Of a DNA stretch of 32,000 nucleotides, positions 6,195 through 31,955 are shown piece after piece (position 1 is the stretch's first letter; every line of letters starts with the position of its first letter). The notes beneath the pieces were generated by a model. The model was given only the letters and a program-made list of their open reading frames with translations, had not been told where the DNA came from and ran no database searches. The DNA comes from Candidatus Electronema halotolerans (GTDB lineage Bacteria > Desulfobacterota > Desulfobulbia > Desulfobulbales > Desulfobulbaceae), in assembly GCA_942493095.1 (NCBI GenBank), contig OW818675.1:2730001-2762000 (forward strand), written 5' to 3'. Position numbers and translations under genes: made by a program.

Positions 6195-7541
6195 GTGAGG
6201 TGCTGGGTTATGGGGAGTGAGTGGAGAAAAGTTACTTGGGGAGACCTCGCAACTCTTGAATATGGCAAAGGATTACGAGGATATCAAGACACAATAGGAA
6301 ATTTTAGAGTTTTTGGTACAAATGGTCCAATAGGTTGGCACAACGAACCCCTTTGTACTTTTCCAAGTGTGATTGTTGGCAGGAAAGGTGCTTACAGAGG
6401 AATTCATTTTTCTCCAGAGCCATTTTTCGTTATTGACACAGCTTTTTATTTAAAACCTAAAGAAGATTTTGACATTAAATGGGCTTATTATGAACTTTTA
6501 ACCCATGACATAAACAGCATGGATTCTGGTTCAGCAATTCCATCAACAAGCCGATATTCGTTTTATACATTGCCTGTACTGTTGCCTTCTAAGGATGAAC
6601 AAAAAGCCATTGCCCATATCCTTGGTTCCCTTGATGACCGAATCGATTTAAACCGGCGGATGAATGAAACCTTGGAAGCAATGGCGCAGGCCTTGTTCAA
6701 GAGCTGGTTTGTTGATTTTGAACCGGTGATTGACAATGCCCTTGCCAGCGGCAAGGAAGTGCCGAAAGAGCTTGCGGGACGTGCTGCCGTTCGTGCTGAA
6801 CTTGGTGACAAACGCAAACCTCTGCCTGCTGAAATCCGTGCTCTTTTCCCTGATGAGTTTGTGTACAGCGATGAAATGGGGTGGATTCCCAAGGGGTGGA
6901 GAATTTCAGAAATTGGCAACGAAGTAGATGTCGTTGGAGGGGGAACACCAAGCACAACGAATCAAGATTTTTGGGAAAATGGCAATTATCATTGGACAAC
7001 CCCAAAAGACTTGTCTGGCAAAAAAGATAAAGTTTTGCTGAAAACGGAAAGAAAAATTACCGAAGCTGGTTTAAAAAAAATAAGTTCCGGGCTGCTGCCA
7101 GTTGATACCGTTCTTCTTTCGTCTCGCGCACCGATTGGGTATCTTGCTTTGGCAAAAGTGCCTGTGGCAGTGAATCAAGGATACATTGCTATGAAATGCA
7201 ACAGGAATCTTCCTTCTGTATATATTTTACAATGGGCAGATTCTTTTATGGATGATATAAAACGGCGAGCAGGAGGAACAACGTTTGCTGAAATTAACAA
7301 AAAAAATTTCCGCACCATTACCGTGTTAGTACCAAACGAAAAATCCTTGAATGCGTACAAAAATATTGTGAACGGATTTTACGATAGCATTTCGGAATCA
7401 ATAGCTATATCATTTTCTCTCGCAACCATCCGCGACACCCTCCTCCCAAAACTCCTCTCCGGCGAACTGCGCATTCCTGATGCGGAAAAACTCGCAGCAG
7501 AGGCTGTGCTGCCCAGTTCCTCCAAAATTCTTTTCCGATAA
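6195..7541 (+). CDS. hsdS: Type I restriction-modification system specificity subunit HsdS (solitary)
   Basis: Two target-recognition domains are separated by the conserved central helix DEQKAIAHILGSLDDRIDLNRRMNETLEAMAQALFKSWFVDFEP. The C-terminal conserved region is IRDTLLPKLLSGELRIPDAEK. A GGAGG sits 4 nt before the GTG at 6195; an alternative ATG is at 6210 (MGSEWRKV). No hsdM or hsdR is present in the window. Confidence 0.85.
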   Translation: MRCWVMGSEWRKVTWGDLATLEYGKGLRGYQDTIGNFRVFGTNGPIGWHNEPLCTFPSVIVGRKGAYRGIHFSPEPFFVIDTAFYLKPKEDFDIKWAYYELLTHDINSMDSGSAIPSTSRYSFYTLPVLLPSKDEQKAIAHILGSLDDRIDLNRRMNETLEAMAQALFKSWFVDFEPVIDNALASGKEVPKELAGRAAVRAELGDKRKPLPAEIRALFPDEFVYSDEMGWIPKGWRISEIGNEVDVVGGGTPSTTNQDFWENGNYHWTTPKDLSGKKDKVLLKTERKITEAGLKKISSGLLPVDTVLLSSRAPIGYLALAKVPVAVNQGYIAMKCNRNLPSVYILQWADSFMDDIKRRAGGTTFAEINKKNFRTITVLVPNEKSLNAYKNIVNGFYDSISESIAISFSLATIRDTLLPKLLSGELRIPDAEKLAAEAVLPSSSKILFR

Positions 7542-7640: not shown

Positions 7641-10600
7641 ATGATCATTTCCGACACTGCGGTCAAACAGAACATTGCTGTGATGGTGCTGGGGGTTCTG
7701 ATTCTGATCATCGGCACCTACAGCTACATGACCCTGCCCCGCGAGGCCGAGCCGGATGTCAGCATTCCCCATGTCTTTATTTCGACAAATTATCGCGGCG
7801 TGGCTCCCGGCGACATGGAAACCTCAATCACGATCAAGATTGAGAACAAGCTCAAGGGGTTGGATGGGGTGAAAAATATCAAGTCGGTCAGTGCTGAGGG
7901 CGAGTCAATGATTGATGTCGAGTTTCTCACCGGCATTGACATTGACGACGCGCTGCGCAAGGTCAAGGACAAGGTGGATGAGGCTAAAGGCGACTTGCCT
8001 ACGGATTTGGAAAACGACCCCGCCGTCTTTGAGGTCAACATCTCGGAAATGCCGATTCTGATTTACTCGCTCTCCGGCACCTGCGGCCTGCACTGCCTGA
8101 AACAGATTGCTGATGATCTGGAGGATGAGATTGAGGCCGTGCCCGGCGTGCTGGAGGCAACTGTCACTGGCGGCCAGGAGCGGGAAATCCGCATTGAAGT
8201 TTCTGCGGACAAATTAGCCTATTACGGCATAGCCATCAACACCCTCCAAGCTGCGGTGCAGGGCGAGAACAGCAACACCTCCGGCGGAGCGGTGCATCTT
8301 GGCGACGGCAAGTTTCAGCTCCGGGTGCCGGGCGAGTTCAGCAGCCCGGAGGAGCTGTACGGGCTGGTCGTGGCCTCGCACAACGGTCAGCCGGTTTATT
8401 TGAAAGAGGTGGCCACGGTCTTTGACGGCTTCAAAGAGGAAAGCAGCCGCTCGCGCATGAACGGCCTGACTGCGGTCAACATTGCCGTGAAAAAACGGGT
8501 CGGCGAGAACATCATCGCCATTGCCAAAGAAGTGGAGAACATCATTGCGAAGCGGCAGCCGACTTGGCCGAGCGGCACCGATATCACCAAGGTCATGGAC
8601 AAGGCTAAGGACACAGAAACTATGGTTGCGGACCTGGAGAACAACATCCTCACCGGTTTGGTCTTGGTGCTGGCAGTCATCTTCTTTGCTATGGGCTTCC
8701 GCAATGCGGTGATGGTCAGCTTGGCGATTCCCTTTTCCATGCTGCTTTCTTTCACTATCCTCCAGATGATGGGCATCACCCTGAACATGGTTGTTCTGTT
8801 CAGCCTGACCTTGGCCTTGGGCATGCTGGTCGATAATGCGATTGTCATTATTGAAAACATCTATCGCTTTATGGAACAGGGAGCAGGCCGGGTGGAGGCG
8901 GCCATGAAAGCCACTTCGGAAGTGGCTCTGCCGGTGATCGGCTCAACCCTGACCACCTTGGCCGCCTTCTCGCCCATGCTCTGGTGGCCGGGCATCATGG
9001 GCGATTTTATGAAATATCTGCCCCTGACCCTGATCATCACCCTGTCCGCCAGCCTCTTTGTCGCCTTGGTGATCAATCCAGCCTTTGCCTCATTGTTCAT
9101 GAAAAGCCCGGCCAAGGCGGCGCAAAGCCAAAGCAAAGGGGATTCTTGGGAGCAGCCGATTGAAATCAAAGGGCCGCTGCTGCGTTCGTACAGCGGCCTG
9201 CTCCGCTTCTGTCTGCGCCATCCTCTGGTGCTGCTGGCCAGCGCAGTGTTTGTAATGATTTTCATGATTCAGGCTTGGCTGCTGCGGGTGGGCCTGAAAA
9301 CGCCGGTGGAGTTCTTTCCCAGCACAGAGCCGAAGGGCATCTATGTCAACGCTGACATGCCGGAAGGTGCTGATTTGGATTATATTGACAGGATTTTGGA
9401 GCAGGTGGAGCAGGCTGTTGCAGGTGATGACCGTCGTAGGGGCGAAAGATCTTTCGCCCCTACGACAACATCTCTTGCCCCTACAGACGGCCCCAGCGAC
9501 TTGAAAAACGTCAGAATCATCTACACCAAGGCGGTCTCAGCCAGCACGGGCAGCTCGGAATTTGAAGCCAACACGCCCAATCATGTCGGCATCCGCTTCC
9601 TTGATCTGGCCGAGCGGGCCGAATCCAGCCGCGCCACTGTGGAGCAGATCAGAAAGCGGATTGCCGAGATACCCGGAGCAAAGCTGACTGTGGCCTTGGA
9701 GGCGGAAGGGCCGCCCACTGGCGAGCCGATCAACCTTGAAATTGCCGGCGACAGCTTTGCCGTGCTGGGCGAGATTGCCAAAGAAATCAAGAAAGCCTTG
9801 GCCAAGCTGCCGCATGTTGAGGACATCCGCGACAACTTTGTTGAGGGCACCCCTTCAGTGCGGGTGCGGATTGACCGGCAGAAGGCGGCCCGCTTCGGCC
9901 TGAGCACCGGCAGCATCGGCTTTGCTCTCAAGGCAGCCTACAACGGCCTGATTGTCTCCTCGTTCCGCGACGGCAGCGACGACTACGACATCACGGTGCA
10001 GCTCCCGGAAAAAGACAGGCAGGTCACGGACGTGCTCCGCAAGCTGCTGATTCCCGCACCCAATGGCACGACTGTGCCCCTCTCCACCTTGGCGGATATT
10101 GACATCACCGGCTCAATGGGCAGCATCAGCCGGATCAACGGCGAGCGGGTGGTGACGGTCAAAGCCAATGTTGATGAGACGAAAGTGACCGGCGCGGTGC
10201 TGCGGCAGCAGGCTGAGAAGCTGCTTGCCCAGATGCCGCTGCCGCCCGGTTATCGCGTCACCTTCACCGGCGAGAACCAGGAGCAGCAGGAGTCTCAGGA
10301 TTTCCTCAGCAAGGCATTCGCTGTGGCCCTGCTTCTGATCTTCCTGATTCTTGTGACCCAGTTCAACTCGGTCAGCCAGCCCTTCCTGATCATGACCTCG
10401 GTTGTCCTGTCTATGGGCGGAGCCTTTCTCGGCCTGATGCTCTACAAAATGCCTTTCGGAGTCATCATGACCGGCATCGGGGTGATTTCGCTGGCAGGCG
10501 TGGTGGTGAACAACGCCATCGTCCTGATCGACTACACCAACCTGCTGCGGACACGCGGCATTTCTGTGCGCGAGGCCGTGGTTGCCGCTGGAGCCACCCG

Positions 10601-10898
10601 CCTGCGCCCTGTGCTCCTGACGGCAATCACCACCATTCTTGGCTTGGTGCCTATGGTCACAGGCGTATCCTATGATTTTCGCAATCTGGCGGTGTCGTGG
10701 GTCAGCGAATCAAGCCAGTTTTGGCAGTCAATGGCTGTGGCCGTCATTTTCGGCCTGATGGCCGCCACCTTCCTGACGCTGGTGGTCGTTCCGGTGCTCT
10801 ACTTCCTGCTGGAGCGGGGCAAGGAGCGGATTGCGGCTGGACGGGAGGCGGTGGAGAGAAAACGGCTGGAGCTGTATCAGGTGCTGGCGGGAGAATGA
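7641..10898 (+). CDS. RND efflux transporter permease, AcrB/AcrD/AcrF (HAE1-like) family
   Basis: 1085-aa ORF with the typical 12-TM, two-large-periplasmic-loop layout. Conserved TM4 region LALGMLVDNAIVIIENI and the matching second-half motif GVVVNNAIVLIDY are present. No membrane-fusion or outer-membrane partner gene is adjacent. Confidence 0.9.
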   Translation: MIISDTAVKQNIAVMVLGVLILIIGTYSYMTLPREAEPDVSIPHVFISTNYRGVAPGDMETSITIKIENKLKGLDGVKNIKSVSAEGESMIDVEFLTGIDIDDALRKVKDKVDEAKGDLPTDLENDPAVFEVNISEMPILIYSLSGTCGLHCLKQIADDLEDEIEAVPGVLEATVTGGQEREIRIEVSADKLAYYGIAINTLQAAVQGENSNTSGGAVHLGDGKFQLRVPGEFSSPEELYGLVVASHNGQPVYLKEVATVFDGFKEESSRSRMNGLTAVNIAVKKRVGENIIAIAKEVENIIAKRQPTWPSGTDITKVMDKAKDTETMVADLENNILTGLVLVLAVIFFAMGFRNAVMVSLAIPFSMLLSFTILQMMGITLNMVVLFSLTLALGMLVDNAIVIIENIYRFMEQGAGRVEAAMKATSEVALPVIGSTLTTLAAFSPMLWWPGIMGDFMKYLPLTLIITLSASLFVALVINPAFASLFMKSPAKAAQSQSKGDSWEQPIEIKGPLLRSYSGLLRFCLRHPLVLLASAVFVMIFMIQAWLLRVGLKTPVEFFPSTEPKGIYVNADMPEGADLDYIDRILEQVEQAVAGDDRRRGERSFAPTTTSLAPTDGPSDLKNVRIIYTKAVSASTGSSEFEANTPNHVGIRFLDLAERAESSRATVEQIRKRIAEIPGAKLTVALEAEGPPTGEPINLEIAGDSFAVLGEIAKEIKKALAKLPHVEDIRDNFVEGTPSVRVRIDRQKAARFGLSTGSIGFALKAAYNGLIVSSFRDGSDDYDITVQLPEKDRQVTDVLRKLLIPAPNGTTVPLSTLADIDITGSMGSISRINGERVVTVKANVDETKVTGAVLRQQAEKLLAQMPLPPGYRVTFTGENQEQQESQDFLSKAFAVALLLIFLILVTQFNSVSQPFLIMTSVVLSMGGAFLGLMLYKMPFGVIMTGIGVISLAGVVVNNAIVLIDYTNLLRTRGISVREAVVAAGATRLRPVLLTAITTILGLVPMVTGVSYDFRNLAVSWVSESSQFWQSMAVAVIFGLMAATFLTLVVVPVLYFLLERGKERIAAGREAVERKRLELYQVLAGE
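9433..9484. repeat. Perfect 34-bp palindrome (9433-9466) plus a third degenerate arm (9470-9484), in frame inside the RND gene
   Basis: GTCGTAGGGGCGAAAGA/TCTTTCGCCCCTACGAC is its own reverse complement, with a central AGATCT. A third arm, ATCTCTTGCCCCTAC, matches arm 2 at 13 of 15 positions. Together they encode RRRGERSFAPTTTSLAPT within the pump. Confidence 0.85.
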
Positions 10899-13698: not shown

Positions 13699-13784
13699 CA
13701 GAGCCTGAGCAGATAGAGAAGAAAATACAGTCCTGCAATAATCAGCAGGGCCACGGCATGAGAAAGATGAAAGGAACGCATCAT
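13698..13784 (-). CDS. Possible 28-aa hydrophobic micro-protein bridging mgtE and htrA
   Basis: MMRSFHLSHAVALLIIAGLYFLLYLLRL. Its ATG begins 1 nt after the mgtE TAA (TAAcATGATG), and its TGA overlaps the htrA ATG (ATGA). It forms a single predicted TM helix. There is no homology evidence. Confidence 0.3.
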
Positions 13785-13785
13785 G

Positions 13786-15189
13786 TTAGAGATTGAGCAG
13801 ATATTTGGCCACCCAAAAATAAAGCGTGATGCTGAGAACGTCAATGGTGGTGGTGTTGAAAGGGCCGGTGGCGATGGCCGCGTCAATATGGAGCCGTTTG
13901 AGAAGAATGGGCACAGCACTGCCAAGACTGGCAGCCATGATCATGACCGTGCAGACAGAAATGCCCACCACCACCCCAAGATAGGCCGAGTCAGTGTATT
14001 TGAAAATGGCAGTCAGGCCGAGCAGTGCCCCGAAAAGCACACCCATAGAGATGCCGAGGAGAAACTCTCGGCCCAGAATTTGAAAAAAATGGGAAATGTT
14101 GACCCGGCCCGTGGCCATGCCCCGAATAACAATGGTGCTGGACTGGTTGGCGATATTGCCGCCCATGCCTGCGATGATCGGCATGAACGAGGCCAAGGCC
14201 AGCACCTTTTGCAGCTCCTGCTGAAAGCTGCTGATGATGAACATGGCCGAGACCCCGCCGATCCACGAGGCAAAAAGCCACGGCGCACGGAGGATGATTT
14301 TCTGATGCAGGGGTTTGAACAGGATTTCATTGTCCTTGCCTGCGCCCGCCATCTGGAAAAATTCTTCCGTGGCTTCCTCGCGGATGACATCAATCACGTC
14401 ATCCACAGTGATGATGCCGACCAATCTGAACGAGGCATCCACCACTGGAATGGCGAGCAGATTGTATTGGGAGACAACATGGGCCACCTCGCTTTGGTCC
14501 GTGTCTGTGGTCACAGAGATGACCTTGGTGTTCATGATGTTTTTGAGCTGGCGGTGCATGGGGTGGAGGAGCAGCTCGCGCAGGGAAAGCACTCCGGCGA
14601 GCTGGCCGTCGCCGTAGGTGATGTAGAGATAAAAGACCATCTCCTTGTCCTCGCTCCGTTTCTGCACCCTGCTGATCGCCTCCTCAACAGTCAGCTCCTC
14701 ATCCAGATACATGAAGTCCGGCGACATGATGCCGCCTGCGCTGTCAGGATCGTACTTGAGCAGCTCCTCGACTTCGTCCCGGTGGTCGCGTTGGAGACAG
14801 GTCTGGACTTCGGCGGCCAATTCCTCCGGGATGGCGGCCAGCAAGTCGGCGGCATCGTCCGGGGCCATTTTGCCCACCACTTCGGCAAGGTAGGCAGGCG
14901 TGACATCTTCGACCAGCTCCAGCAGAATGGAATCATCCAGCTCGCTGAAGAAGTCGGCCACCAAATCCGTGCCAGCTATGACTTCAAAAATCGTCTTCCG
15001 TTCCGCCGGAGCCAGGGAGCGAAAAACCCAAGACAGATCAGCGGGATGGGTCTTGAGCACCAGTTTGAGAATATTCTCGGTCGCACCCCGGCGCTGGAGG
15101 CGGCGCAGGGTGTCAAGCAGCACCTTGCCCTCAAAGCCGATCATTTCCCGTTTTGTCGTTTTTTCCATGAGCATTTTCTGCCTGCGCAT
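13786..15189 (-). CDS. mgtE: Magnesium transporter MgtE
   Basis: 467-aa ORF with an MgtE_N-like acidic N-domain, a CBS pair (VISVTTDTDQSEVAHVVSQYNLLAIPVVD) and a C-terminal 5-TM domain carrying MPIIAGMGGNIANQS and GPFNTTTIDV motifs. Confidence 0.9.
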   Translation of the reverse strand: MRRQKMLMEKTTKREMIGFEGKVLLDTLRRLQRRGATENILKLVLKTHPADLSWVFRSLAPAERKTIFEVIAGTDLVADFFSELDDSILLELVEDVTPAYLAEVVGKMAPDDAADLLAAIPEELAAEVQTCLQRDHRDEVEELLKYDPDSAGGIMSPDFMYLDEELTVEEAISRVQKRSEDKEMVFYLYITYGDGQLAGVLSLRELLLHPMHRQLKNIMNTKVISVTTDTDQSEVAHVVSQYNLLAIPVVDASFRLVGIITVDDVIDVIREEATEEFFQMAGAGKDNEILFKPLHQKIILRAPWLFASWIGGVSAMFIISSFQQELQKVLALASFMPIIAGMGGNIANQSSTIVIRGMATGRVNISHFFQILGREFLLGISMGVLFGALLGLTAIFKYTDSAYLGVVVGISVCTVMIMAASLGSAVPILLKRLHIDAAIATGPFNTTTIDVLSITLYFWVAKYLLNL

Positions 15190-15348
15190 AATAAAGTTCC
15201 TAGACAGGTTTTATGGGCAGACACAACTGACAACCCTTGCCCGCCATTTTTTTTGAGGCACTGATTGGAACGGGCTGGTGCAGGAGAAAACTTGCAGAAA
15301 CGAAAGCAGAAACTGCTGTCAATTTACGCAGCCATCATGCCCTCCCAG

Positions 15349-26026: not shown

Positions 26027-26054
26027 ATTATAGTTTCTTTTCCTGAAAAAGCAA
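26027..26054 (-). promoter_or_regulatory. Sigma-70-like promoter TTGCTT-16-TATAAT for the 65-aa ORF and the PHP phosphatase gene
   Basis: Minus strand reads TTGCTTtttcaggaaaagaaacTATAAT, with a perfect -10. It lies immediately downstream of the hairpin that ends the kinase operon. Confidence 0.4.
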
Positions 26055-26072
26055 GATGCGGCATGTTCATGC

Positions 26073-26112
26073 GCGCTGCGGCAAGGGGTGAACCGCTGCC
26101 GTGCCGCAGCGC
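26073..26112 (-). terminator. Stem-loop directly after the last gene of the kinase operon
   Basis: 11-bp perfect arms GCGCTGCGGCA / TGCCGCAGCGC (26073-26083 and 26102-26112), beginning 7 nt past the stop at 26119. No strong U-tract follows. Confidence 0.4.
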
Positions 26113-26118
26113 AACAGA

Positions 26119-27123
26119 TCAGAATTGCAACGTATGCTCGTAAAGCTGCTTGTGGCCGTCATCCAAGGTGACTTCAGCTTTAAGCTGGAACACGCCCCAG
26201 CCGATGGCGGTCAGAGGATGGCCCAGCTTGGAGTTGTCGCCCTGCTGCACCGCAGGTTTGAATGAGGGGTGCAGATAGTAGATGACCGAGCTGATCCGGC
26301 GGAGAAAGGCGGGCGGGCCGTCAATATAGGCGGTCCACTCCCAGCGTTTTCTGTCGAGCTGACGGGCCGTGTTGGTCAGCGACAGCGCATTGAAGACCTC
26401 AGCCGAGCTGGCCTTTTTGAACTGTTCCTGCGACGGCGGCACCTGCTGGGGGGTCACAGGAGCTTCCGGCGATTGCTGCCAGCGGTCATCCTGATCCCCT
26501 CTGCTGCCGCGCCGCTCATCTTTGTTCCAGCGGTGGTCGTCGCGGCTGTCCCGATCCCGGCTGCGGCGGGGATGATCGTTCTTGGCCCGGATGCCGACAT
26601 AGGGCACAAAGAGCTGTTCTGATCTCCGCCGACCCTGCCAGTGGTCATCCCTGTCTCTGTCCCGGCGGCGGCTGCGGTCTCTGTATTCCATCAGACCAGC
26701 CTTGAGTTCCAGCGTGTCCAAATCCTTCAGCTCCTCACCCGCCAGCTGGCTGCGCAGCAGCCCCCGGATGGTGCGGATGGTGAACCTGCGGGCCTGAAAC
26801 TGCTCCTTCCGGTCCAGCTCGCGGGCTGTGCGGCGCGGCAGCAGGGCAACAGCCTGCCGGACTAAAGAATCAGCCCAGTCATGCACGGCATCCATGTCCC
26901 TGCCGCCCCGTTCAGCGTACAGAGAAACGCCGGGCGCAACAAGTCCCTGCACCGCCTCCTGCTCGGTCAGCTCATCGCTGTAGGCAACCTGCCAGCCGCC
27001 TGTTTCCACCCCTTCTTCTGCCGCTTTCCGGCTGCTGTTCTCAGAACGCGCCCAGACTGCTGTTGCCGCTGTCATGGCGAACAGCAGCACCAAGGCTGCC
27101 AGCATTGGTTTTGCCGCTTTCAT
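26119..27123 (-). CDS. Secreted protein with an Arg/Asp-rich repeat linker and a C-terminal prokaryotic-YEATS-like (pYEATS) domain
   Basis: GGAGAG-TAA-tgat-ATG context supports the start at 27123. Signal peptide MKAAKPMLAALVLLFAMTAATAVWA/RSE. The C-terminus, WEWTAYIDGPPAFLRRISSVIYYLHPSFKPAVQQGDNSKLGHPLTAIGWGVFQLKAEVTLDDGHKQLYEHTLQF, matches my recollection of the pYEATS pattern (W.....I.V.Y.LHP.F....GWG.F.....V.L.DG). The domain call is unverified. Confidence 0.75.
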   Translation of the reverse strand: MKAAKPMLAALVLLFAMTAATAVWARSENSSRKAAEEGVETGGWQVAYSDELTEQEAVQGLVAPGVSLYAERGGRDMDAVHDWADSLVRQAVALLPRRTARELDRKEQFQARRFTIRTIRGLLRSQLAGEELKDLDTLELKAGLMEYRDRSRRRDRDRDDHWQGRRRSEQLFVPYVGIRAKNDHPRRSRDRDSRDDHRWNKDERRGSRGDQDDRWQQSPEAPVTPQQVPPSQEQFKKASSAEVFNALSLTNTARQLDRKRWEWTAYIDGPPAFLRRISSVIYYLHPSFKPAVQQGDNSKLGHPLTAIGWGVFQLKAEVTLDDGHKQLYEHTLQF

Positions 27124-27127
27124 ATCA

Positions 27128-27637
27128 TTACTCTCCTGGTTTGGGTTCAACTGCTTTGCGGGCAAACTCGATGATGCTTTTTTCCACGTTGGCAAAGACC
27201 TCCGGGCATGCTGCCGCCGCCGGACTGCTGCGGCAGATCACCTCCTTTGTCTTTTCTCCATCCCGGACAAGGATGCGGTGCGGATAGCTGCGCTCTTCCC
27301 TCCCGGCCCCGTAGGCCTCCTTGAGCCGATCAAAACCGCTTTCCCGGATCAATTGCAGCAGTTCATCCGCCTCGGCTTCTGATACGCGGGCTGTTTTCTC
27401 CACCTTTGTCATCTTTGACGGCACAGCAGAGACCGGATTGTCATATTCCGGCATTTCCTCAATGTCAGAAAGGAGGAAGTCAGCAGTCAAAGCAATATGC
27501 CGAAAAGGAGCTGCGTATTCAATCAGCAGACCGCTTTTCTCCTTGGCCTTTGGCTGGCTCTCTGCCGGACAGGCAGTCAGCAGGAACAGCAACATGACCG
27601 GCCAGACGAACTGTGCATGTCTCATGTGGATTTTCAT
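27128..27637 (-). CDS. Hypothetical lipoprotein
   Basis: 169 aa with signal peptide and lipobox VMLLFLLTAC. Its start lies 3 nt after the upstream stop. No recognised domain. Confidence 0.7.
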   Translation of the reverse strand: MKIHMRHAQFVWPVMLLFLLTACPAESQPKAKEKSGLLIEYAAPFRHIALTADFLLSDIEEMPEYDNPVSAVPSKMTKVEKTARVSEAEADELLQLIRESGFDRLKEAYGAGREERSYPHRILVRDGEKTKEVICRSSPAAAACPEVFANVEKSIIEFARKAVEPKPGE

Positions 27638-27640
27638 TGG

Positions 27641-28582
27641 TTATTTGCCATCATTGTCCTTGCCCCGAACTGTCGCCTCTTGAGGCGGCGGGAGCAATTC
27701 TCCGGCAATTTGGTACGGTTCCCAGTTTGTCGTTGAGGAGACAAAGGCATCGTTGACGACTTTTCTGACTGTGGTCAGCAGCTCCTGCGCCTTAGCATAA
27801 CTGGAGTTGCTGGCTAAAGTAATAAAATACATACCGCTCTTTGCCAGATAAACAACCGGCTTGCCCAAATCCTGCTGGTTCTTGGAGGCGGCAGGTTGAA
27901 TTTTCTCCATCAAAGCCTGTGTGATGTCATTGAGCTGCTCTTTACTCTTTGTGCTGTGAATCACCACTGCAAAGATGCCGGGAATGTCAGGACTCTGTTT
28001 CTCCTGCGTTTCAATCAGCGACTTCACCTTCTCGATGTTATCGACCGCCTTGCGGCTGCCAAGCTGCTTTGCCTGCGTAAATTCCTGCAAGGATTCTTCA
28101 TAGCGGTCAGCAAGCATCAGGGCATAGCCAGTGTTGTTGCGCAGCTTCATCTGGGTGGCATCTGCAAGCAGATCATATATTTTTGGAGCAGCCGCTGTTT
28201 TGAAGCACTCTATGGCCTGATCAAAATCTCCCAGCATGATATGCACATAGCCTATGGTGTTGTAAATTGATGGATCAGGAATCTGTCCCCGGCCTTCTCC
28301 TGTCTTCAGAGCTGCTGCCAGAACTTCCGCTGATTTCTGATATTCCTTCATCTGCGCCAGAAGGCGGCCATAATTGTAGGCAATGGTAAAGCTGTTCGGA
28401 TATTTCGTCCGCAGCCCGGAATATATCTGCTGGCTCTGCTCAAATTGATTCTGATCTTTATAGGCTTCCGCTGCGGCAAATTGCGCCGCAGCCTCTGCTG
28501 GAACATCAATCTGGACAGCCTCTTGAGCCGCAACTGTCTGCATCAGCAGAATAATGAAGAGAAGCTGCGCCAGCACTCTCAT
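27641..28582 (-). CDS. Secreted TPR-repeat protein with a C-terminal SPOR-like domain
   Basis: Signal peptide MRVLAQLLFIILLMQTVAAQEA. TPR-like repeats (AEAYKDQNQFEQSQQIY, YNYGRLLAQMKEYQKSAEV, NTIGYVHIMLGDFDQAIECF, GYALMLADRYEESLQEF). The C-terminal beta-alpha-beta-beta-alpha-beta pattern (IFAVVIHSTKSKEQLNDITQALMEKI...VVYLAKSGMYFITLASNSSYAKAQELLTTVRK) is SPOR-like. GGAGG RBS and an ATGA overlap with the upstream gene. Confidence 0.75.
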   Translation of the reverse strand: MRVLAQLLFIILLMQTVAAQEAVQIDVPAEAAAQFAAAEAYKDQNQFEQSQQIYSGLRTKYPNSFTIAYNYGRLLAQMKEYQKSAEVLAAALKTGEGRGQIPDPSIYNTIGYVHIMLGDFDQAIECFKTAAAPKIYDLLADATQMKLRNNTGYALMLADRYEESLQEFTQAKQLGSRKAVDNIEKVKSLIETQEKQSPDIPGIFAVVIHSTKSKEQLNDITQALMEKIQPAASKNQQDLGKPVVYLAKSGMYFITLASNSSYAKAQELLTTVRKVVNDAFVSSTTNWEPYQIAGELLPPPQEATVRGKDNDGK

Positions 28583-29052
28583 ATCCCCGCCTCCTCTGTC
28601 TGCCCCGCCTCATGAAAGATGTTTTGCGCCTGCCGCGCTTTCAGATTCTTCAGCTCGTTGCTGGCTCCGGCAGAACTTGATTCCATGAAATTCAGTCTTT
28701 TATACAAAGCAAAAAGATTGATGGACACTTCGTTCTCATCCTGCATCGGCACGTCTTCTCCATTGATATCCACTTTCTTTCCAGCCGCTTTCACTACAAG
28801 ATCATGAGCAATCTCTTCCGGTGTGACATCAAACTTGATATTGATTTTCGGGTCCAGCAAGTCCCATGTCATGCCGACAAGAATCACGCCAAAAGACATG
28901 AGCATGAAAAGTCTGATCTCCCGGCATCTGATTGTCAGATTTTCCCCTTCAAAATCCTTGGATGCCATCACCTTTTGCAGCAGAAGATAAGAAAGAATCA
29001 AGATGGCAGTCGCGAATCCAAGGAATCCTAATTTTACCAGCTCCACAATCAT
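28579..29052 (-). CDS. Hypothetical 2-TM membrane protein
   Basis: 157 aa with TM helices LGFLGFATAILILSYLLL and LFMLMSFGVILVGMTW, then a soluble C-terminal region. Its ATG overlaps the kinase TGA (TGATG), with GGAGAA upstream. Confidence 0.7.
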   Translation of the reverse strand: MIVELVKLGFLGFATAILILSYLLLQKVMASKDFEGENLTIRCREIRLFMLMSFGVILVGMTWDLLDPKINIKFDVTPEEIAHDLVVKAAGKKVDINGEDVPMQDENEVSINLFALYKRLNFMESSSAGASNELKNLKARQAQNIFHEAGQTEEAGI

Positions 29053-31955
29053 CAGCGTTCTCCTTTGTCAGAAGGGCATAACCTCTGCTGTCCGCGTCTG
29101 CGGTCCAGCGCGGCTCGGACGGTCCGGGCCAATTCCTGCTTGCTGAATGGTTTCATTAAAAGACAACAGGCACCCAGTGCCACTGCTTTTTGCTCGTCAA
29201 TCAGCTCGCTGAAGCCGGTGCAGAGCAGCACTGGCAGATCAGGCCGCAGGGCGAGAATCTTGCGCATCAGTTTGGCTCCAGTCATCTCCGGCATGGTCAT
29301 GTCAGTGAGCAGCAGATCAAAATAATCCGGCTGCCGGGCAAAAAGGGCAAGCGCCTTGGCACTGGAATGAAGCACTGTGACCTGATAGCCGAGGCTTTTG
29401 AGAATGCTGCTGTTTGTGCCGGCAACACCTGCATCGTCATCAACAATCAGCACCCGTTCCTGGCCTGAGGGCGGAGGCGCGGCATCCTCCTCCTGCCGCT
29501 GCTCCGCCTCGCTCCTGATGACCGGCAGATAAACTTGAAAGGTGGAGCCTTTGCCAAGCTCGCTGCGCACAGTAATGTCGCCGCCGCAGCTGAAGACGAT
29601 GCTCTGCACGATGGCCAGCCCCAGCCCTGTGCCGTCGCCTTTGGCCTTGGTGGTGAAATACGGCTCAAAAATTTTATCCAGCATGTCTTCGGACATGCCG
29701 CTGCCTGTGTCCCGCACTTCCAGCCGCAGCCATGAGCCTGGAGCAAGCCGGGTTTGCTCGTGCTCGGACAGGCTGGCAGCCGGAAGCTCAACCTGCCGCA
29801 AGGAGACCTCCAGCAGGCCGCCGTTTTTCCGCATCGCATGATAGGCATTGGTGCAGAGATTCATGATCACCTGATGAATCCGGGTCGGATCAGCCAGCAC
29901 CATCCCCCAAGCCGGGTCAATCTGCTTGCGGATTTCAATGGTGGCAGGCAGGGAGGAGCGCAGGAGCTTGAGGGTTTCCTTGACAATGGGCCGGATGCTT
30001 ATGGGCTGTAGCTCCTGCTGCTCGCTCTTGCGGCTGAAGGCAAGTATCTGCTTGACCAACTCCTTGGCCCGCGTTCCGGCCCGCCGCACCTCCTGCATCC
30101 AGTCGGCAATGGTGCTGTTTTTAGGCAGGGCTTCGATGGCCATGTCTGTGTAGCCGATGATCGGGCCAAGAATGTTGTTGAAGTCGTGAGCGATGCCGTT
30201 GGCCAAGGTGCCGATGGCTTTTATTTTTTCCATCTGGAGCAGCTGGGCCTCCAGCTTCTTCTTTTCCAGCTCCGCCTTTTTCCGTTCTGTGATGTTGCGC
30301 ATGATGGTCCTGACAGACACCACCTCGCCCTGTTCAAGCAGCGGCACAGCACTGACCTCGACATCAATCCGCAGGCCGGTCTTGGAGATCAGGGCGGTTT
30401 CGTAGCTGCGCAGACAGCTACCCGCAGCGAAAATTTGTTCGAGAGCGCGGGCGGTCCGGGCCTTGCAATCAGGATGAATGATGTCCAGCAGGGGCGCGCC
30501 GACCACTTCCTCCCTGCCGCAGCCCAAGGTCAGCAGCTCAACCGGATTGACATCAACAATCTTGCGTTCCTTGTTGACAATATGAATCATGTCCGGCGCA
30601 TCATTGAACAGGCTCCAGTACTTGCTTTCGCTGCGGCGCAGGGATTCCTCCATCTGCTGCCGCTGCACGGCCAAGGCGAAGACTGCGGCCAGCCGCTCCA
30701 CGGCTTCCCGGTCATGGGCCTGAAAGCCTTCCGGCTTGCCGGTCAGCACGATCCGGCCTGCCATGCGGCTGTCAAGGCGGGCCGGAACATGGAGGGCATC
30801 CGGGCTGAACTGCCGTCCAGCCGCCCGGCCTTCGAGCACGGTTTCGGCTGACTCGCAGCCGGTCAGCTCCTGCGCCGCCCTAGCGATCAGCTCGCCGGTC
30901 TCGTCGATGGAAAACGAGCGCGAGAGCAGGGCATCGGAAACTTCAGCAAGTATCCGGTTCACCGCTAATTCCCAGAGCAGCTCCTCCTCGGCCTTGCGCC
31001 GTTCCGCCACCTCAGCCTCCAGACTGTCCGTGTTTTTCTGGAGGGCTGCCGTGCGTTCCCGCACTTTGCCTTCCAGCTCCTCCCGGTGCGCGTGCAGCTC
31101 CCGGAAGAGCATGTTGTAGGGCTGGGTCAGGCCAGTTTCGATCACAGCCCGGTAAATGGCATAAAAGGAAAAGATGCGGAAAAAATGGCCCAGAAAGTTG
31201 GCAAGGTCAGAAGTCGTGACATAGCGGGTGAAACACAGCTCTGCGGCAATGGTGAGCAGAATTGCTGTCTGCATGAGCCGGAGGACATGCGGATCAAAAC
31301 AGGCACTGTTTTTCCGCAGCAGCAGGAGAGAGCCGACTAAGAGGAGAATGACAAGATACTCGCTGTTTTTCTTGAAGGCAGTCAGCCCGCTGCCTTCAGC
31401 ATAGCATTCCGGGAAAACAGGACAGGCGAAAATGATCAGCAGCACTATGGCGGTGACTGACAGATAGCCAGACAGAGCCAGACAGGTGTTCACTCTTCTC
31501 CGCAGAAAAAAAAAGGCCAGCAGCAGCGAGAAGCCTTCCATGCAGCGGGCCGCGATCCAGAGCTGACTGGAAGTATCCTGACTGTCAATCCACGGAAAAA
31601 TGGCCATGTCCTTGTAGGACAGGCAGTGGGCCAGATCGAGCATGCCGATGAAGAGATAGGCAATGCCGATGAGGAGAAAAAAGTGATTTTCTTGAATCTG
31701 GCGGGTGTTCCACGCGAAAATAAAAATTGCGCAGGCAACCGTGACGCTGAAGAATTCCGCCAAGGTATGGAAGAGCAGATTGTTGCACAGGCTGATCAGG
31801 TGCAGGCCCAGCCCGATGGCAAGCAAGGCGAGGAAAGGAAGAAAAAAACGGGGTCTGGCGATTTTTTTGGCTCTGGCTTCCATATTCTTGGACAGAAATG
31901 GCTCCCAAAAGGGATGTTCTCCCTGCGTTGCCGCAGGGACTGCCATAGATACCAC
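29052..31955 (-). CDS. Hybrid sensor histidine kinase: multi-pass (MASE3-like) membrane domain, coiled coil, GAF-like, PAS, HisKA, HATPase_c and a C-terminal receiver
   Basis: About 8 TM helices in the first ~280 aa (LFHTLAEFFSVTVACAIFIFAW). PAS region (SKYWSLFNDAPDMIHIVN...). H-box ANGIAHDFNNIL, N-box NLCTNAYHAM, G-boxes DTGSGM and GTGLGLAIV. REC domain VLIVDDD...LLLTDMTMPEMTG...K. The start is uncertain: GTG 31955, ATG 31946 or ATG 31883. Confidence 0.9.
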   Translation of the reverse strand: MVSMAVPAATQGEHPFWEPFLSKNMEARAKKIARPRFFLPFLALLAIGLGLHLISLCNNLLFHTLAEFFSVTVACAIFIFAWNTRQIQENHFFLLIGIAYLFIGMLDLAHCLSYKDMAIFPWIDSQDTSSQLWIAARCMEGFSLLLAFFFLRRRVNTCLALSGYLSVTAIVLLIIFACPVFPECYAEGSGLTAFKKNSEYLVILLLVGSLLLLRKNSACFDPHVLRLMQTAILLTIAAELCFTRYVTTSDLANFLGHFFRIFSFYAIYRAVIETGLTQPYNMLFRELHAHREELEGKVRERTAALQKNTDSLEAEVAERRKAEEELLWELAVNRILAEVSDALLSRSFSIDETGELIARAAQELTGCESAETVLEGRAAGRQFSPDALHVPARLDSRMAGRIVLTGKPEGFQAHDREAVERLAAVFALAVQRQQMEESLRRSESKYWSLFNDAPDMIHIVNKERKIVDVNPVELLTLGCGREEVVGAPLLDIIHPDCKARTARALEQIFAAGSCLRSYETALISKTGLRIDVEVSAVPLLEQGEVVSVRTIMRNITERKKAELEKKKLEAQLLQMEKIKAIGTLANGIAHDFNNILGPIIGYTDMAIEALPKNSTIADWMQEVRRAGTRAKELVKQILAFSRKSEQQELQPISIRPIVKETLKLLRSSLPATIEIRKQIDPAWGMVLADPTRIHQVIMNLCTNAYHAMRKNGGLLEVSLRQVELPAASLSEHEQTRLAPGSWLRLEVRDTGSGMSEDMLDKIFEPYFTTKAKGDGTGLGLAIVQSIVFSCGGDITVRSELGKGSTFQVYLPVIRSEAEQRQEEDAAPPPSGQERVLIVDDDAGVAGTNSSILKSLGYQVTVLHSSAKALALFARQPDYFDLLLTDMTMPEMTGAKLMRKILALRPDLPVLLCTGFSELIDEQKAVALGACCLLMKPFSKQELARTVRAALDRRRGQQRLCPSDKGER

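Follow-up and report, generated by a model that had tools for sequence, protein, structure and literature searches.

A composite envelope gene cluster of Candidatus Electronema cable bacteria encoding a secreted pYEATS protein with a predicted acyl-amide pocket

We analysed a 32,000-nt stretch of the genome of the cable bacterium Candidatus Electronema halotolerans (hereafter the window; coordinates are window positions unless a locus is named), in which five adjacent genes encode a MASE3 hybrid sensor kinase, a membrane protein with two predicted transmembrane helices (2-TM), a secreted TPR protein, a 169-aa exported protein and a secreted protein ending in a pYEATS domain. Judged from gene order across related genomes, this cluster is a composite of a constant core and a separately inherited 2-TM/TPR pair. 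We tentatively interpreted it, with slightly less than even confidence and with the mechanism discussed below included, as a lineage-specific Electronema envelope cluster in which two modules of different evolutionary range stand behind the kinase. The first, constant module would consist of the translationally coupled ~170-aa periplasmic protein (a lipoprotein in the halotolerans clade) and the secreted protein built of an N-terminal domain (N-domain), a linker and pYEATS. The second, facultative module would comprise the 2-TM membrane protein and the periplasmic TPR protein and might serve as an optional envelope scaffold. What is new here is an undescribed cluster and one undescribed domain family; the remaining parts are of known kinds. 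A literature search found no paper on this cluster, which agreed with an earlier reading of the DNA letters (the original prediction) that had called the combination undescribed. The observation behind that prediction was confirmed, and its interpretation was partly supported. The five genes were as follows.

29052..31883, minus strand: MASE3-PAS-HisKA-HATPase_c-REC (receiver) hybrid sensor histidine kinase (Pfam); the open reading frame (ORF) reaches GTG 31955
28579..29052, minus strand: 157-aa membrane protein with two predicted transmembrane helices (about residues 6-26 and 46-64), from the translation
27641..28582, minus strand: 313-aa secreted TPR protein with a Sec-type signal peptide, TPR at about residues 30-175 and a C-terminal alpha/beta domain at about residues 200-290
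27128..27637, minus strand: 169-aa exported protein with an L-T-A-C lipobox, the constant upstream partner of the pYEATS gene
26119..27123 (stop included), minus strand: 334-aa secreted two-domain protein with a Sec-type signal peptide and two confident domains in the AlphaFold2 model (the pYEATS protein)

All 28 named full-length homologues of the pYEATS protein belonged to Electronema (one was listed under the older name Desulfobulbus). When 185,579 species genomes were scanned by pattern, eight of them proved to hold full-length relatives, namely six Electronema and two unclassified Desulfobulbaceae metagenome-assembled genomes, and all other matches spanned the pYEATS domain alone. Wherever an Electronema locus was long enough to judge, the order AAA+ ATPase, kinase, ~170-aa protein and pYEATS protein was kept (full core order in L001, L003-L006, L009, L012-L014 and L037, where L numbers denote the compared loci). 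The core pair, i.e., the genes for the ~170-aa and pYEATS proteins, occupied the same position between housekeeping genes (glyA and a PHP phosphatase gene) across the genus, and the spacing between its two members was always between -4 and +4 nt, making it one invariant coupled pair. Homologues of the ~170-aa protein were found in Electronema-type loci only, always directly upstream of the pYEATS gene.

The 2-TM/TPR pair was present in the cluster, between the kinase and the ~170-aa gene, only in the window, L014 (UBA5173), L037 and L038. It was not found in 8 of the 12 Electronema-type arrangements examined (Electronema sp. V4, PJ, KV, JC and JM, E. nielsenii F5, E. aureum GS and L006). Among these, L006 was the closest relative of the window (kinase 82% and pYEATS protein 79% identical), yet it carried no 2-TM/TPR pair, and no TPR homologue from the pair-less assemblies turned up in the protein search. 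In Candidatus Electrothrix (Rat3, E. scaldis and a metagenome contig; L028-L030), the pair was free-standing in a different neighbourhood, kept its 4-nt overlap and was 63-70% identical to the window copy, and none of the other three cluster genes was near it in these three loci. Therefore, the pair appeared to be an independent module common to both cable-bacterium genera. The original prediction had taken the five genes for one conserved unit, which these arrangements contradicted; the co-occurrence that it had proposed to look for in other genomes was borne out for the AAA+, kinase, ~170-aa and pYEATS genes, and for the 2-TM/TPR pair in four lineages only.

We considered it unlikely that the five genes make up a single novel envelope system, dedicated to signalling or defence, that needs every one of its components. 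Such a system would fit the recurrence of the five-gene order in the window, L014, L037 and L038, four diverged lineages whose TPR proteins shared only 47-58% identity, and it would fit the four junctions of the window, all of which were overlapping or within 4 nt. However, it was at odds with the eight arrangements lacking the pair (the closest relative among them), with the failure of the protein search to recover a TPR homologue from those assemblies and with the Electrothrix pair that lacked the other three genes nearby. Moreover, when the five proteins, the upstream AAA+ protein and the downstream N-domain paralogue described below were run through PADLOC, only three marginal matches were obtained, each below 16 bits with E of at least 0.002 (PDC-M60B for the kinase receiver, a generic TPR model for the TPR protein and mad8 for the AAA+ protein), and neither member of the core pair had a match. 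Since the matches were marginal, nothing supported a defence role, and the earlier suggestion of a defence module was dropped.

The identical insertion site in the four diverged lineages favoured an ancestral position of the pair in the Electronema cluster followed by repeated loss. In an unrooted comparison, the mean identities of the pair were 67% between halotolerans and Electrothrix, 51% between halotolerans and freshwater Electronema, and 50% between Electrothrix and freshwater Electronema. These values may alternatively reflect a recent transfer or replacement from Electrothrix, or a fast freshwater branch. A convergent OEP plus AcrB-type RND efflux operon followed the pair in the Electrothrix loci (L028 11033-15765, L029 10988-15660 and L030 11082-15739).

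The evidence that gave the constant module a possible function came from the pYEATS protein, which was 100% identical to the entry 'YEATS family protein [Candidatus Electronema halotolerans]' and consisted of three parts.

26569..27027, minus strand: N-terminal domain (residues 33-185), an undescribed alpha+beta family with a confident AlphaFold2 model
26422..26568, minus strand: linker (residues 186-234), disordered (AlphaFold2 predicted local distance difference test, pLDDT, below 50) and Arg/Asp-rich
26122..26406, minus strand: pYEATS domain (residues 240-334, Pfam) with pocket residues H285, S287, F288, W309, G310 and F312

The C-terminal domain had been predicted to be YEATS-like, and this held on both profile and structure. 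It matched PF20305 pYEATS (E = 8e-15, 54.9 bits against a cut-off of 26.9) and PF03366 YEATS (E = 5.8e-7, 29.8 bits against a cut-off of 22), and its AlphaFold2 model had a pLDDT of about 90. The top 50 Foldseek matches in the PDB were all YEATS domains (E of about 1e-5, probability 1.0), with target-normalised template-modelling scores of 0.36-0.63. In a profile alignment to human YEATS2, residues H285, S287, F288, W309, G310 and F312 fell on H259, S261, Y262, W282, G283 and F285, and they were invariant across 16 homologues except for S or T at position 287. Mutagenesis of YEATS2 established that H259, S261, Y262, W282, G283 and F285 are required for binding of crotonyl-lysine (PMC4856769). 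Since the pocket residues of the Electronema protein were invariant and aligned with those of YEATS2, the predicted acyl-amide pocket is conserved and, on the alignment, intact in the periplasmic domain. Thus, the Electronema domain shared with the eukaryotic YEATS readers (YEATS2, AF9, Taf14 and GAS41) the Ig-like beta-sandwich fold and the same clamping and hydrogen-bonding residues (H-x-S-[FY] and W-G-x-F), but it differed from them in being exported to the periplasm, in forming the C-terminus of a bacterial secreted protein and in having no chromatin context.

The original prediction had regarded an extracytoplasmic pYEATS domain as unusual, a view that a wider survey did not sustain. A HMMER search of 1.84 billion representative sequences gave 1316 matches, the best 150 of which were classified by domain hidden Markov models (HMMs) and a hydrophobicity test. 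Among these best 150, 113 proteins contained pYEATS only, 84 with a signal-like N-terminus and 29 without, although the list was ranked by similarity to a secreted query and the proportion of secreted forms may be biased. The signal-like examples that we inspected had textbook signal peptides; one was a 217-aa tandem-pYEATS protein from the myxobacterium Pyxidicoccus fallax. Judging by such N-termini, it was clear that many secreted pYEATS forms exist. Secreted matrixin-like (M10) and papain-like (C1) peptidases carried two or three C-terminal pYEATS copies, and the position of these repeats as C-terminal appendages of peptidases fitted an accessory binding role. Cytoplasmic proteins with an N-terminal pYEATS domain, seen in the genome scan, made up one further class. 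The Electronema protein had a signal peptide and a C-terminal pYEATS in common with the secreted tandem-pYEATS and peptidase-pYEATS proteins of PF20305, whereas it combined a single pYEATS copy with the N-domain rather than with a peptidase or further repeats. This combination of N-domain and pYEATS was found in Electronema-type sequences only.

The linker was highly charged, with Trp and His regularly interspersed (RDRSRRRDRDRDDHW...DRDSRDDHRW...DQDDRW), which is unusual for a periplasmic protein. Its long form occurred in the halotolerans clade only; other Electronema had short Pro/Gln-rich linkers, and both length and composition varied.

The N-domain carried the motifs GGW, G-V-x-x-G-V-S, W83, K141-x-G143 and P174-Y175. 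Modelled alone, it reached a pLDDT of 86.6 and a predicted template-modelling score of 0.81. Comparison of the model with the PDB gave a best E of 0.32 with template-modelling scores below 0.3, comparison with BFVD gave a best E of 0.07, and no Pfam or NCBIfam family matched. Relatives of the N-domain (E of 1e-15 to 1e-26) formed parts of fusions with Hemopexin repeats, PLAT, DUF7477 or DUF1036; they occurred with or without a signal peptide, and one came from Candidatus Electrothrix gigas. The pairing of one domain with beta-rich binding modules that differ from protein to protein suggests that it may be the working part, with pYEATS as the targeting part.

A secreted paralogue of ~200 aa consisting of the N-domain only was encoded directly downstream of the pYEATS gene in most Electronema loci, at the following positions.

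L001 11091-11687: N-domain paralogue
L003 8977-9582: N-domain paralogue
L009 11018-11605: N-domain paralogue
L012 11081-11674: N-domain paralogue
L013 10848-11459: N-domain paralogue
L014 10917-11510: N-domain paralogue
L037 10386-10988: N-domain paralogue
L005/L008 7197-7894: N-domain paralogue

The window, L004, L006, L010 and L038 had no such paralogue downstream of the pYEATS gene, and the copy of E. nielsenii F5 was split over two reading frames, probably reflecting either a pseudogene or an error of assembly. The distant N-domain protein P0154, encoded on a metagenome contig (locus L036, 1-13422), was flanked by very large Peptidase_C14 (caspase-like)/WD40 proteins, and the two similarly sized genes before it (474 and 434 aa) had no match to the N-domain HMM. 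Such surroundings are typical of systems predicted to act in conflict or cell death.

The second member of the core pair, the 169-aa protein, had a sequence that fitted the lipobox pattern [LVI][ASTVI][GAS]C (LLFLL-T-A-C, residues 17-23). Its lipobox Cys was present only in the halotolerans clade, while the other orthologues had signals of the signal peptidase I type (...A-S-G-S-K in most Electronema orthologues). Therefore, lipid anchoring was not a trait of the family. The export or anchor signals that had been predicted for all four proteins after the kinase were indeed seen in the translations; lipoprotein status as a general trait was not. The protein may start at Met5 (27625), the sole Met conserved in the homologues. 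Over residues ~80-155, DUF6438 matched 13 of 15 homologues weakly (best E 4.6e-5) and Emfourin 6 of 15 (best E 4.9e-4), all below the Pfam cut-offs, and the window protein itself scored 15.3 bits for Emfourin (cut-off 27) and 13.9 bits for DUF6438 (cut-off 30). It is thus possible that residues 80-155 form a distant DUF6438/Emfourin-like domain. In comparison with the Emfourin-protealysin operons (PF20242) and DUF6438, the likeness lay in a small exported protein whose gene adjoins, and is coupled to, that of a larger secreted protein, and in weak profile similarity over about 60-75 residues, all of it below the cut-offs; the difference was that the partner of the ~170-aa protein is no M4 peptidase. 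In L035 and L036, two N-domain gene contexts outside the cable bacteria, no ~170-aa partner was found; a metagenome scan for further contexts of this kind yielded just two short contigs, which added no information.

These properties raised the question of an effector-immunity (toxin-inhibitor) pair, in which pYEATS would aim a secreted N-domain effector at the envelope of a target cell and the Emfourin-like ~170-aa protein would protect the producer. The varied C-terminal binding modules joined to the N-domain (PLAT, hemopexin and pYEATS) resemble the targeting domains often found in toxins, one distant N-domain gene lay among the caspase-like Peptidase_C14/WD40 giants of L036, and the weak similarity of the ~170-aa family to a protease inhibitor (Emfourin) came together with strict translational coupling. 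However, the fixed chromosomal site between glyA and the PHP phosphatase gene throughout the genus pointed to vertical inheritance rather than to a mobile defence island. In addition, the N-domain had no known toxin fold in the PDB or BFVD and the core pair no PADLOC match, the ~170-aa family was not found beside N-domain genes outside Electronema, and many N-domain proteins lacked a signal peptide. We therefore judged the effector-immunity pair improbable, and our tentative preference stayed with the two-module envelope cluster.

As for the facultative module, the 157-aa protein had no Pfam, NCBIfam or PADLOC match; NCBIfam was equally uninformative for the other three non-kinase proteins. 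It was 67-68% identical to Candidatus Electrothrix proteins, and its first 65 residues were almost invariant. Its gene overlapped the TPR gene by 4 nt in all loci holding the pair, Electrothrix included. The secreted TPR protein stood as predicted: TPR_2 matched with E = 4e-13 (48.7 bits against a cut-off of 27), other TPR models passed as well, a signal peptide was present, and TPR profiles matched 17 of 17 homologues. The protein search returned 22 homologues, and every named one belonged to Electronema or Electrothrix. The C-terminal ~90 residues were highly conserved among homologues and had no family assigned in Pfam. In size and nature they resembled the periplasmic alpha/beta domain of the SPOR proteins FtsN, DamX, DedD and RlpA, and the original prediction had proposed a SPOR-like peptidoglycan-binding candidate. 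On sequence, this identity was not supported: the window protein had no PF05036 match, sub-threshold matches appeared in 3 of 17 homologues (E of at least 0.006, under the 21-bit cut-off), hhalign against the E. coli FtsN, DamX, DedD and RlpA SPOR domains gave a probability of 4.5% with a shifted alignment register, and a profile of the C-terminal domain searched against PDB sequences found no SPOR structure.

The kinase matched MASE3 (E = 1.5e-79), HATPase_c (1.3e-24), Response_reg (2e-21), PAS_9 (2e-12) and HisKA (3e-7) in Pfam, with the MASE3, HisKA, HATPase_c and receiver matches each above the cut-off. The prediction of a MASE3-like hybrid kinase that carries its own receiver was therefore correct, and, as also predicted, no DNA-binding response regulator was encoded in the cluster or adjoining it. 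Against the NCBIfam model NF047874 (MASE3_PAS_HK) the kinase scored 338.5 bits, below the subfamily cut-off of 560. It shared with the NF047874 kinases the full-length MASE3 membrane domain, PAS, HisKA and HATPase_c, but it had an extra C-terminal receiver, and its conserved partners were an AAA+ ATPase and periplasmic proteins, with no response regulator. Translation most likely begins at Met25 of the ORF (31883) and not at GTG 31955, because all homologues begin there (MEARA/MDARA), and the first 24 codons of the longest kinase ORF (31883-31955) are probably an untranslated leader. Kinase orthologues were 60-82% identical and held the same position in every Electronema locus with a kinase match; L010 had no match above the 300-bit filter.

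In all Electronema loci that extended far enough, the gene next upstream of the kinase encoded a ~753-aa cytoplasmic AAA+ protein.

L014 2509-4770 and L006 621-2885: AAA+ gene, which in the window genome would sit just past the window end (>32000)

This protein had a C-terminal AAA+ ATPase domain with the Walker A motif GPPGSGKS and a 450-residue N-terminal region without a family, and PDB and NCBIfam searches with it gave no match. On the opposite strand, an OmpA-family gene lay divergently upstream of the AAA+ gene in several Electronema loci.

The company of this OmpA-family gene as a conserved divergent neighbour is one of the observations that could place the cluster in the envelope architecture of cable bacteria (shared periplasm, cell junctions or assembly of the conductive fibres), with the TPR and pYEATS proteins as scaffolds. 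For the 2-TM, TPR, ~170-aa and full-length pYEATS proteins alike, all homologues bearing an organism name came from cable bacteria, and all four products were exported or membrane-bound. On the other hand, Electrothrix builds the same fibres as Electronema, and searches of limited sensitivity did not find the core pair there; the pair common to both genera was dispensable in many Electronema species; and the literature searched gave no proteomic or localisation evidence. A dedicated architectural role was, on balance, very unlikely.

The same kinase neighbourhood allowed a different objection, namely that the kinase has no functional tie to the genes that follow it, its adjacency being inherited, and that only the small periplasmic pairs are functional units. 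A spacer of 45-220 nt followed the kinase gene outside the window, and neither a response regulator nor an Hpt gene was linked to it. However, the kinase stop overlapped the next start in the window, and the kinase and AAA+ genes co-directionally preceded the core pair in nearly every locus (L010 was the exception), while the distant flanks differed. An unrelated kinase was accordingly regarded as doubtful.

The junctions of the window agreed with the original description of five packed minus-strand genes. In the ORF listing these occupied 29052-31955, 28579-29052, 27641-28582, 27128-27637 and 26119-27123. The kinase stop and the 2-TM start shared one base in TGATG at 29050-29054 (a 1-nt overlap, read from the sequence), and the 2-TM and TPR genes had ATGA at 28579-28582 in common (a 4-nt overlap). 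The TPR stop was separated from the start of the 169-aa gene by 3 nt (TAA-cca-ATG), and the stop of the latter from the ATG of the pYEATS gene at 27123 by 4 nt (TAA-tgat-ATG), with GGAGAG upstream. Gene overlaps of such size are ordinary in operons; it is the conservation of tight spacing across genomes, not the overlaps themselves, that exceeds chance. The cluster was followed by one further feature.

26073-26112, minus strand: stem-loop, 7 nt past the pYEATS gene stop, with an 11-bp G+C-rich stem

Folding of the 86-nt stretch 26040-26125, which contains this hairpin, gave a free energy (dG) of -34.5 kcal/mol (z = -2.5 against shuffles). The hairpin and the TATAAT (26027-26032) named in the original prediction were both present, although a consensus scan reported no terminator and no complete -35/-10 promoter there. 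No U-tract adjoined the hairpin (a U-run lay ~20 nt further on), so that it did not qualify as an intrinsic terminator. It is possible that the hairpin marks a transcript end or acts as a stabiliser.

Taken together, domain logic and gene order suggested a mechanism for the favoured two-module cluster, including acyl-amide-directed localisation, a stoichiometric partner and kinase input. The pYEATS domain would serve for targeting: by binding an N-acylated amine, for example acyl-lysine or a comparable amide, in the periplasm or envelope, it would position the N-domain, which would be the working part. The ~170-aa protein, small and co-translated, may bind the pYEATS protein one-to-one and act on it as an inhibitor, chaperone or adaptor. 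Membrane state would probably be sensed by the MASE3 kinase together with the AAA+ ATPase, and the kinase would signal via its own receiver to partners encoded elsewhere. A more specific version, to which we gave little credence, makes the core pair an extracytoplasmic 'reader': recognition of an acylated lysine or amine on a component of the filament envelope by its YEATS-type domain would localise an effector domain of new fold, with the partner restraining the activity of this effector and the kinase and AAA+ protein tuning it.

Several results weighed against this interpretation. No ligand of a prokaryotic YEATS domain was found in the literature searched, and the N-domain had no recognisable catalytic or pore-forming signature. 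The DUF6438/Emfourin similarity of the ~170-aa family stayed below the cut-offs, and a profile of this family searched against PDB sequences returned nothing. The core pair was not found in Electrothrix by searches of limited sensitivity. Finally, the stop/start overlap of the kinase with the next gene was peculiar to the window and the other genomes had the longer spacer, leaving conserved adjacency as the sole basis for a regulatory link between the kinase and the periplasmic genes.

Elsewhere in the window, RNA gene scans of the whole stretch found no tRNA and no Rfam family. An apparently orphan specificity (S) subunit gene of a type I restriction-modification system (6195-7541) lay in the part of lowest G+C content (0.445 against ~0.56 elsewhere), possibly foreign DNA, and adjoined an AcrB-family RND transporter gene (7641-10898). 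Two long ORFs of 493 and 467 aa occupied the same stretch on opposite strands (13783-15264, plus; 13786-15189, minus); the plus-strand one had no Pfam match at E <= 1e-5.

To our knowledge, cable bacteria are not yet genetically manipulable and most of their lineage-specific genes are without annotation. The value of the cluster is thus that of a lead and not of a result, with parts tied to no phenotype. As such, it offers a conserved, genus-wide neighbourhood in which periplasmic proteins are linked with a membrane sensor kinase and an AAA+ ATPase. It also contains a confidently folding domain of ~150 residues without a relative in Pfam, the PDB or BFVD, which has been recombined with binding modules in other bacteria. 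If the core pair were such a reader system, an extracytoplasmic bacterial YEATS domain would for the first time have an assigned function, and a widespread uncharacterised domain family would gain a first handle. More generally, the predicted pocket of this periplasmic domain and the large number of secreted pYEATS proteins suggest that the recognition of acyl-amides beyond the cytoplasm may be a common and unstudied phenomenon in bacteria.

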